A DNA stretch of 64,000 nucleotides. Origin: Escherichia coli. Lineage in GTDB: Bacteria > Pseudomonadota > Gammaproteobacteria > Enterobacterales > Enterobacteriaceae. Both the position numbers and the translations under genes were made by a program. Of the stretch, positions 48,336-50,535 are shown in pieces. Each line of letters starts with the position of its first letter. The stretch's first letter is position 1. The stretch lies in assembly GCF_030013205.1 (NCBI RefSeq), contig NZ_CP122648.1, one strand, 5' to 3'. The notes beneath the pieces were generated by a model, which did not search any database, was not told the DNA's origin, and saw only the letters and a list, made by a program, of their open reading frames with translations.

Positions 48336-48481
48336 TCCTCTGATTTACAAAACACGCTAATTCGTCTTCCATAAACCATGACGATTAAGATTTATACATA
48401 ATGCGCTACATTGAGGAATTCCCTGAATGTGACGCAAATCACTTCAAAGAGTGAGCAACAGTCAGTATCATCATGTGAGTT

Positions 48482-48517
48482 AAACCCTCGCCGCCTGACG
48501 GTGAGGGTTTTCTTTTG
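48482..48517 (+). terminator. rho-independent terminator of rna
   Basis: AACCCTCGCCG-CCTGA-CGGTGAGGGTT followed by TTCTTTTG. Confidence 0.7.
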
Positions 48518-48564
48518 GGTATGTTTATCTGCGACACTCGCAGTACCGACGACATGGAGTAAAA

Positions 48565-48975
48565 ATGTCCAGACCAACTATCATCATTAACGACCTGGAT
48601 GCCGAACGCATCGATATTCTGCTGGAGCAACCCGCCTATGCTGGTTTGCCAATCGCCGACGCGTTAAACGCAGAGTTGGATCGCGCCCAAATGTGTTCGC
48701 CAGAAGAGATGCCACACGACGTGGTGACAATGAACAGCCGGGTTAAATTCCGCAATCTTAGCGATGGCGAAGTGCGTGTGCGCACGCTGGTGTATCCGGC
48801 AAAAATGACCGACAGCAATACTCAGCTTTCCGTTATGGCTCCGGTAGGTGCTGCACTGCTGGGGCTGCGCGTTGGCGATTCCATTCACTGGGAACTTCCG
48901 GGCGGCGTTGCAACCCACCTTGAAGTGCTGGAACTCGAATACCAGCCAGAAGCTGCTGGCGACTACCTGCTTTAA
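48565..48975 (+). CDS. rnk: regulator of nucleoside diphosphate kinase Rnk (GreA/B-like)
   Basis: 136-aa [32 protein letters not shown].. Confidence 0.9.
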
Positions 48976-49009
48976 TCCCATCTGCACAAGCGATAACTCG
49001 CTTTGCCCA

Positions 49010-49033
49010 GAGGATGCACTCGCATCCTCTTTT
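49010..49033 (+). terminator. rho-independent terminator of rnk
   Basis: GAGGATGC-ACTC-GCATCCTC followed by TTTT. Confidence 0.7.
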
Positions 49034-49117
49034 CGCTCAAATATCAACCAGATTTATCATTTTGCTCTTAAGCGCAGCATTCTAATCTGAACTGGTTATT
49101 CATCTGCGGAACCTCAT

Positions 49118-49207
49118 ATGAGCGAAGCTCTCGGTATCACTGCATTTTATATATTCATAGCCGCGATTATTGTTGCTGCAGTGCTATACCTTGAACAACG
49201 CTGGTAG
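49118..49207 (+). CDS. candidate 29-aa single-pass membrane peptide (MSEALGITAFYIFIAAIIVAAVLYLEQRW)
   Basis: Short ORF below the track cutoff, translated by hand; one hydrophobic helix; weak RBS; no homology evidence. Confidence 0.2.
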   Translation: MSEALGITAFYIFIAAIIVAAVLYLEQRW

Positions 49208-49330
49208 CGCCTGGTTTTATTTATTTTCCAGCTCAATAGCAAATTCAGATCAAATCAGCCTCGCAAATCATAGATTCATAACCAATAATGTGCTGTTATG
49301 TATACATGCAAAAACAAGGAGAGAATGCTT

Positions 49331-49759
49331 ATGTACAAGACAATCATCATGCCAGTGGATGTTTTCGAAATGGAATTGAGCGACAAAGCTGTTCGCCACG
49401 CTGAATTCCTCGCCCAGGATGACGGAGTTATTCATCTACTTCACGTACTACCCGGGTCAGCCAGCCTGAGCCTGCACCGTTTTGCCGCTGATGTGCGTCG
49501 TTTTGAAGAGCATCTGCAACATGAAGCAGAAGAACGTCTGCAAACGATGGTCAGCCACTTCACCATCGATCCTTCCCGCATTAAGCAACATGTCCGTTTT
49601 GGTAGCGTGCGGGATGAAGTCAATGAGTTGGCAGAAGAACTGGGGGCTGATGTTGTAGTTATCGGTTCGCGCAACCCTTCGATTTCGACCCATCTGTTAG
49701 GTTCTAACGCCTCGAGCGTGATCCGCCACGCCAATCTGCCGGTGCTGGTTGTGCGTTAA
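49331..49759 (+). CDS. uspG: universal stress protein UspG (YbdQ)
   Basis: 142 aa from [19 protein letters not shown].. with RBS AAGGAGAG; the track ORF starts 11 codons upstream. Confidence 0.9.
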
Positions 49760-49829
49760 TTGCCAGAATAAATATCCCGCCCTGCCCGGAGCCATCCCGG
49801 CGGGGCTTTTTATTGCCATAATAAATATC

Positions 49830-50535
49830 CTCCGGCATAGCCGGAGGTTTTTCAAATGCGCCTATAAGGCTCTCTTACCAGCCGCGCCCTAACAGGCGCA
49901 CACGATCTGACATTTGCATCCAACTTCGTTACTTACGGCCCGTAAACGGGCTGCCCGGATAGGGAATCGATAACTGCTCTCCCATTTTATCCTCTTCAAG
50001 CTGGTGCTTTATGTAATCCTGTATCTTCGCCGTGTTCTTACCCACTGTATCGACGTAGTACCCTCTGCACCAGAACTCCCTGTTCCTGTATTTGAATTTC
50101 AAATCACCAAACTGCTCGTAAAGCATCAGACTGCTTTTCCCTTTCAGATATCCCATAAACCCGGATACGCTCATTTTGGGCGGGATCTCCACAAGCATAT
50201 GGATATGATCTGCACAGCATTCAGCTTCCAGAATCCGTACGCTTTTCCACTCACACAGCTTTCTCAAAATACTGCCTATTGCTCTACGCTTCTCTCTGTA
50301 GAACACCTGTCTTCGGTATTTTGGCGCAAAAACTATGTGATATTTACAGTTCCATCGGGTGTGCGCTAAGCTCTTTTCGTTCCCCATTGGGACCCCCTTT
50401 TGATTTCTTGTTTGACACTTGCAGTTGCCAGACCGCAAGGTGTTTTAACAAATCAAAAGGGGTTTTAATAACTGGCTCAAAGCTGAAAGCTTTCCGGAAC
50501 CCCCAGCCTAGCTGGGGGTTTTCTGTGCACAAAAA
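49830..50535 (-). mobile_element. IS200-family insertion sequence (boundaries approximate, +/- about 30 bp)
   Basis: Contains a 152-aa Y1 (HUH) transposase gene; upstream of it the characteristic perfect hairpin CCCCCAGC-CTA-GCTGGGGG (50500-50518) and a second stem-loop (CCCCTTTTGATTTG..CAAATCAAAAGGGG) occluding the RBS; size about 0.7 kb as expected for IS200. Confidence 0.8.
49929..50387 (-). CDS. tnpA: IS200 transposase TnpA (Y1/HUH)
   Basis: MGNEKSLAHTRWNCKYHIVFAPKYRR..ADHIHMLVEIPPK.. with HUH motif HIH; near-identical to the IS200 TnpA I recall from Salmonella; the track ORF starts 17 codons upstream. Confidence 0.9.
   Translation of the reverse strand: MGNEKSLAHTRWNCKYHIVFAPKYRRQVFYREKRRAIGSILRKLCEWKSVRILEAECCADHIHMLVEIPPKMSVSGFMGYLKGKSSLMLYEQFGDLKFKYRNREFWCRGYYVDTVGKNTAKIQDYIKHQLEEDKMGEQLSIPYPGSPFTGRK

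Follow-up and report, generated by a model that had tools for sequence, protein, structure and literature searches.

The short rnk-uspG interval of an Escherichia coli genome holds yldA and very probably represents one of two old haplotypes, the one without ybdR

In the 64-kb window, by which we mean the whole stretch of E. coli DNA analysed here, rnk and uspG are separated by 355 bp (48976-49330, between the rnk stop at 48975 and the uspG start at 49331), and the coordinates given for this spacer in an earlier note on the sequence proved exact. The rnk-uspG stretch is 100% identical to that of RefSeq E. coli strain K_EC180 and carries the same gene calls; the RefSeq annotation of K_EC180 at this locus reads rna, rnk, yldA, uspG, IS200C transposase and ahpF. 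The interval thus annotated contains the rnk terminator, the known gene yldA and a uspG upstream region of the W type (Table 1). In K-12 the arrangement is longer. The earlier note had placed ybdR between rnk and uspG on the K-12 map, and rightly so: strain BW25113 has the order rnk, yldA, ybdR, uspG, with a yldA of 90 nt and a ybdR of 1239 bp that lies on the opposite strand, 3 nt past the yldA stop codon. The absence of ybdR reported for the present genome also stands within the window, as a tblastn search with K-12 YbdR returned no match anywhere in the 64 kb.

Table 1. Features of the rnk-uspG region, in coordinates of the 64-kb window
Feature	Position	Strand	Basis
rnk coding sequence (regulator of nucleoside diphosphate kinase), left flank	48565..48975	+	ORF list; annotated rnk in K_EC180; 99.5% nucleotide identity to K-12
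rnk intrinsic terminator: hairpins at 48984-49006 and at 49009-49031, then a U tract	48984..49035	+	RNA fold
Haplotype-specific block, W type	49037..49311	.	Global alignment to K-12; genome counts
Weak Shine-Dalgarno-like GGAA, function inferred	49108..49111	+	GG(G)A at the matching place in other genera
yldA, W allele, 29-aa single-pass small membrane protein	49118..49207	+	RefSeq; NF041476; hydropathy; conservation
yldA-uspG spacer, W-allele uspG upstream region	49208..49330	+	Alignment of ~90 proximal nt; fold
uspG coding sequence, right flank	49331..49759	+	ORF list; annotated in K_EC180; 97.7% identical to K-12

Several features lie just outside the interval. Upstream of rnk, the Rfam family rnk_leader (RF01771) matches 48411-48519 on the plus strand with 125 bits, and a terminator-like hairpin is found within that region at 48482-48510. 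On the other side, a 711-bp copy of IS200C occupies 49820-50530, between the uspG and ahpF terminators, and is absent from K-12 and from ATCC 25922; its tnpA runs from 49929 to 50387 on the minus strand, and a match to the Hfq-binding RNA STnc490 in Rfam (146 bits) covers 50397-50520, also on the minus strand.

The fold of the rnk terminator has a free energy of -24.2 kcal/mol (z = -5.95), which none of 200 shuffled sequences equalled in stability, and the stretch GAGGATGC..GCATCCTCTTT does not vary among 18 spacers representing 6 genera, even if a consensus terminator scan did not list it. Folding gave no terminator or stable hairpin 3′ of yldA (z = +0.35) and no unusual structure in the yldA 5′ region (z = -0.27). 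A consensus scan of 48976-49330 found no sigma-70 promoter for yldA or uspG, and an Rfam search of the spacer at E <= 1 returned no family, only a chance-level snoZ223 hit of 23 bits against a threshold of 45 bits. The Shine-Dalgarno sequence of uspG, AGGAG, is located at 49317-49321, and the uspG start lies 123 nt past yldA on the same strand. The ~90 nt proximal to uspG align across all genera considered and come in two flavours, W and K.

The small open reading frame of the spacer encodes MSEALGITAFYIFIAAIIVAAVLYLEQRW and has no in-frame start further upstream. It had been put forward as a plausible single-helix membrane peptide, which conservation, hydropathy and the RefSeq annotation all bear out; what the note missed is that it is already RefSeq yldA and is found in K-12 too, between rnk and ybdR. 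The gene is therefore known and named, not new. RefSeq calls it "small membrane protein YldA" in 14/14 of the full-length short-form rows sampled. With the NCBIfam equivalog model NF041476 (curated cut-off 45 bits) the W allele scores 59 bits (E = 3.2e-16, profile positions 1-29 of 29) and is thus a member; K-12 YldA, at 57.9 bits, is above the cut-off as well. With the Pfam model PF23689 (YldA-like) the W allele reaches 22.9 bits (E = 9e-5), just under the threshold of 27 bits, and we place it in the YldA family despite this miss because of the equivalog match and synteny. Residues 5-23 make up the best 19-aa hydropathy window (mean Kyte-Doolittle 2.67). The acidic N-terminus and basic C-terminus suggest, by the positive-inside rule, a predicted N-out/C-in orientation. 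Annotated lengths of yldA in RefSeq are inconsistent, mostly 90 nt but 189 nt in strain D5 (locus L003, 4450-4638) and 141 nt in strain HH97 (locus L086, 2577-2717), and in some K-type genomes the frame is labelled "hypothetical protein".

Size says nothing in favour of such a frame, as dozens of ORFs of ~29 codons appear in the ORF list of the 64-kb window and lengths of this order are common by chance; we judge it real because it is conserved over 36 loci. The family was gathered from 80 rnk loci of species-representative genomes. In 36/36 of the loci with the gene, from about ten genera and with 33 distinct sequences, YldA has exactly 29 codons with the frame intact at the same position; Escherichia, Citrobacter, Enterobacter, Lelliottia, Leclercia, Pseudenterobacter, Phytobacter and Kosakonia are among the genera listed. 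Wherever the gene occurs among the loci listed, it sits directly 3′ of the rnk terminator on the rnk strand. Residues M1, E3, A21, V22, L25 and E26 are invariant over the 36 loci and all are present in the window ORF, together with the C-terminal AVLYLE motif of the family.

One could still hold that the 29-codon frame is a chance ORF, or that its annotation has merely been carried along by similarity, and that the spacer serves regulation alone, as rnk terminator and uspG promoter. The ribosome-binding site is indeed weak, as the earlier note had it, with only GGAA lying 6 nt ahead of the yldA ATG; the spacer contains no promoter match; and VanOrsdel et al. 2018 caution that the annotation of short genes is unreliable (PMC6001520). 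We regard this reading as having next to no probability, given that length, frame, start and stop are kept in 36 loci and that variation follows the codon, with an entropy of 0.68/0.50/1.23 bits at the three positions, highest at the third. The mean pN/pS is 0.37, and the window and E. albertii proteins match at 29/29 residues despite a pS of 0.30. Besides the equivalog match, the K-12 orthologue (MAEAFYILIGFLIMAAIIVMAVLYLENHS) was detected as a protein by chromosomal SPA tag and immunoblot (VanOrsdel et al. 2018, PMC6001520, Table 1 therein). That detection concerns the K-12 allele, whereas the W allele is known from its evolutionary pattern and hydropathy; on this comparative evidence we take the W allele of yldA to be a translated gene under purifying selection.

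The two alleles are alike in length (29 aa), strand, location directly downstream of the rnk terminator, the invariant residues and AVLYLE, and they are otherwise far apart. In a global alignment, identity to K-12 is about 98.4-99.4% up to 49036, near-identity ending with the rnk terminator, and then collapses; the alignment resumes at the uspG ribosome-binding site, ~49312-49324. About 285 bp of the window (49037 to ~49311) stand against ~1,620 bp in K-12, where the counterpart consists of a K-type yldA, ybdR and the ybdR-uspG intergenic region. Between the rnk terminator and the end of yldA identity is 58%, and it is 58% again over the 90 nt that precede uspG; rnk and uspG themselves stand at 99.5% and 97.7%. 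At the protein level 15/29 residues of YldA are identical (52%), with a pS of 0.75, that is, with synonymous sites near saturation, and the window allele falls below the PF23689 threshold. So sharp a drop within a single species, from 99% to 58% identity, demands recombination between old lineages and not divergence in place.

Both forms are widespread. In counts over 5,426 complete E. coli genomes, which carry sampling bias (for example ST131), the short spacer was found in 1,817 with its 294-bp core in the window as query, and the K-12 block (yldA, ybdR and intergenic sequence, 1,628 bp) in 3,605; the rnk-uspG stretch was contiguous in 1,816, and any match to the rnk-uspG query, taken as presence of rnk, was obtained in 5,422. 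Since 1,817 and 3,605 add up to 5,422, all the genomes with rnk, the W and K forms are mutually exclusive. The short form occurs in ATCC 25922 and ST131, the long form in K-12, O157:H7 and O104:H4. The presence/absence polymorphism of ybdR that the earlier note had proposed to check against K-12 and other E. coli genomes is thus substantiated. In the literature searched, the titles and abstracts of papers that mention ybdR contained no account of it, and no paper combined the gene with phylogroup. Public annotation already shows both the gene and the polymorphism. Relocation of ybdR elsewhere in the genome was considered and rejected: the K-12 block matches 0 W-type genomes (3,605 + 1,817 = 5,422), and nothing was found in the window.

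The same note had pictured the short gap as a deletion of ybdR with a junction that could be located. No junction was found, and the block is a different allele, at ~58% identity between flanks of 97.7-99.5%. A recent simple deletion between yldA and uspG in a K-12-like ancestor, with its junction in the spacer, would account for the lack here of a gene that two thirds of E. coli genomes possess, and real deletions do occur at this locus, rare as they are. Strain HH97 (locus L086, 2577-2921) is a true ybdR deletion with a K-type yldA, a 192-bp frameshifted ybdR remnant and a K-12-type uspG. Strain HS-02 (locus L087, 2424-2701) is of the W type with part of yldA lost, leaving a rnk-uspG gap of 278 bp and no annotated yldA. 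HH97, as a positive control, shows what a recent event leaves behind, namely K-12-type flanks at the junction and a ybdR remnant, and the window has neither: no remnant appears in the spacer by K-12 alignment, nor in the 64-kb window by tblastn. A recent deletion would also leave K-12-like sequence on both sides, yet yldA and the uspG upstream region are other alleles, and a spacer of 353-356 bp recurs in E. albertii and two other Escherichia lineages. We consider such a deletion highly improbable. Very probably, the short gap is one of two old, mutually exclusive E. coli haplotypes, the one without ybdR.

Variation is not confined to the spacer. Half of the differences between the window and K-12 in uspG (5/10) fall within its first 36 nt, adjoining the W block. 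Between K-12 (locus L001, 6101-6529) and ATCC 25922 (locus L084, 4768-5196) uspG is 92.5% identical, where citG, citT, rna, rnk and ahpF are 96.8-99.3% identical, and the differences between the window and ATCC 25922 cluster in nt 276-406 of the gene. uspG is unusually diverse within E. coli, which suggests a recombination mosaic that reaches beyond the spacer.

Compared with the window, ATCC 25922 has 99.3% identity in rnk, 98.6% in the spacer and 93.9% in uspG; the corresponding values are 97.6%, 93.0% and 93.0% for Escherichia sp. MOD1-EC7003, 95.6%, 94.6% and 92.8% for SCPM-O-B-8794 (the representative of a separate species cluster), and 93.7%, 88.2% and 87.4% for E. albertii. The spacer thus diverges in step with its flanks across Escherichia, which fits vertical descent within the genus.

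Beyond Escherichia, the rnk-uspG interval exists in four states in the Enterobacteriaceae loci listed (L004-L083). Neither gene is present in Kluyvera, most Kosakonia and the C. freundii complex, with rnk-uspG gaps of 150-210 bp. Loci with yldA only, from several genera, have gaps mostly of 355-370 bp, reaching 517 bp at most in three loci. Those with ybdR only, in Salmonella and E. cloacae, measure ~1,520-1,630 bp, and those with both genes, in K-12, C. sedlakii and many Enterobacter, ~1,650-1,790 bp. No yldA was detectable in Salmonella, though ybdR is present there. The yldA-only spacers of Citrobacter, Enterobacter, Lelliottia, Phytobacter and Kosakonia sp. S29 can be aligned over their full extent, and three of their elements do not vary between genera: the stem of the rnk terminator, the ORF and the uspG Shine-Dalgarno sequence. 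When a tree is built from the yldA region, the window falls together with the remaining Escherichia short forms and one Citrobacter subgroup (R56, NCU1, Awk 4, S646), none of which has ybdR; the companions of K-12 are C. amalonaticus AUH, a Citrobacter MAG, C. sedlakii and C. koseri. The same tree has ybdR+ and ybdR- loci of Enterobacter and Lelliottia interspersed on one yldA backbone.

The history of ybdR itself can be read in more than one way. K-12 ybdR, a gene of the zinc-dependent alcohol dehydrogenase family that fills the interval in the other haplotype as well as in Salmonella, C. sedlakii and many Enterobacter, is 80.5-81% identical to that of Salmonella, 79.8% to that of C. sedlakii and 75-78% to those of Enterobacter, and rnk, uspG and ahpF are about as far apart. 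As the ybdR distances approximate core-gene distances, long vertical residence fits as well as import from an unsampled relative. A recent import of K-12 ybdR from one of the sampled genera was rejected, the nearest ybdR being only ~81% identical, the same as core genes. The literature that mentions ybdR includes work on Rcs envelope stress (a LolCDE inhibitor, Salmonella RcsB variants, O157 rcsB disruption), and ybdR may be Rcs-regulated.

As to direction, parsimony leads us to lean towards the short form having come first in Escherichia, because all three non-coli lineages listed, ATCC 25922 and ST131 are of the W type; the outgroup loci listed are without E. fergusonii. ATCC 25922 and ST131 belong to phylogroup B2. 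Within Escherichia the W block has descended with divergence at the level of species, and other genera have counterparts of it. With the short form first, the K-12 form, comprising K-type yldA, ybdR and the K-type uspG upstream region, would have entered E. coli by homologous recombination. The opposite course, which we think rather unlikely, starts from rnk-yldA-ybdR-uspG as the ancestral order of Escherichia, Salmonella, Citrobacter and Enterobacter, the W type being an ancient loss or import that preceded the split of the Escherichia species, with both types co-existing in E. coli since. It gains from ybdR identities that mirror the species tree and agree with the values for rnk, uspG and ahpF, from the occurrence of ybdR in Leclercia, Silvania and Intestinirhabdus besides Salmonella, C. 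sedlakii and many Enterobacter, and from the interspersed loci of Enterobacter and Lelliottia, by which loss or gain must be frequent. It sits poorly with the W type of 3/3 non-coli Escherichia lineages sampled, as well as of ATCC 25922 and ST131, and with the near-constant size of ybdR-less spacers from genus to genus (355-370 bp), an outcome hardly to be expected of independent deletions; the more distant Kluyvera, most Kosakonia, Yokenella and Trabulsiella also do without ybdR.

YldA resembles another small protein. YoaI is a 34-aa E. coli membrane protein that binds and activates the sensor kinase EnvZ (Vellappan et al., PMC11429745); its invariant residues are Ser26, Val27 and Glu31, the last of which lies in the cytoplasmic tail and is needed for EnvZ binding (PMC11429745). 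Against the YoaI model NCBIfam NF041475 (cut-off 45 bits), window YldA scores 30 bits (E = 4e-7) and K-12 YldA 22.5 bits, both below the cut-off. An hhalign comparison of the YldA alignment with YoaI gave a probability of 91.7% over 27 columns with 37% identity. In the reverse direction the YldA HMM scores YoaI (locus L085, 8079-8183) at 18.9 bits, a value that 0/5,000 fully shuffled YoaI sequences (maximum 12.7) and 0/5,000 sequences shuffled in the helix core only (maximum 16.4) reached; the resemblance thus goes beyond amino-acid composition. For eight further small hydrophobic proteins of K-12 the score is about 0. The hhalign offset of 5 places YoaI S26/V27/E31 on YldA A21/V22/E26 (Ser to Ala), three of the six YldA invariants. 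YldA shares with YoaI an N-terminus that is acidic, a single helix and a short, basic tail at the C-terminus; unlike YoaI, it has an N-terminus five residues shorter, is encoded at another locus and scores below the NF041475 cut-off. YldA is probably a remote paralogue of YoaI and not a member of its family, a relationship judged from 27 aligned residues of a hydrophobic peptide. The literature searched contained neither a statement of YldA-YoaI homology nor interaction data for YldA. By analogy with YoaI, we speculate that YldA, oriented N-out/C-in, may bind a second membrane protein by means of its helix and of Glu26, which is juxtamembrane and invariant.

The haplotypes also differ in what follows yldA. 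The K-12 gene runs head-on to ybdR, their stop codons lying 3 nt apart, and the two appear as an "excludon" in a list of convergent overlapping transcripts (PMC12288877). The window yldA, in contrast, is followed 123 nt on by the co-oriented uspG, and because there is no terminator after yldA we propose that in the W haplotype yldA transcripts would run on into uspG. Taken to its full extent, the idea is that the rnk-uspG interval would be a long-lived multi-state recombination locus (none, yldA, ybdR or both) with E. coli alleles as far apart as genera, that YldA would be a YoaI paralogue using a small-residue-Val...Glu motif on a sensor kinase or other membrane protein, and that the haplotypes would wire yldA differently, co-transcribed with the stress gene uspG in one and convergent with ybdR in the other. 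As a whole this is speculative and we hold it improbable, but if it were true, a third of E. coli strains would regulate uspG and yldA unlike the laboratory strain.

Taken alone, the short gap carries little weight: yldA already has a name and an annotation, and ybdR belongs to the ordinary accessory genes. How deeply the alleles of the polymorphism have diverged, and the link to YoaI, add modestly to this. The similarity of YldA to YoaI offers a testable idea for a small protein without known function. Pangenome tools would score "gene loss" where allelic replacement occurred. For the biology of E. coli, K-12 is unrepresentative here: about one third of complete genomes have a YldA only 52% identical to its own, another uspG upstream region and no ybdR, and results obtained in K-12 on yldA, ybdR or the regulation of uspG may not transfer to W-type strains.
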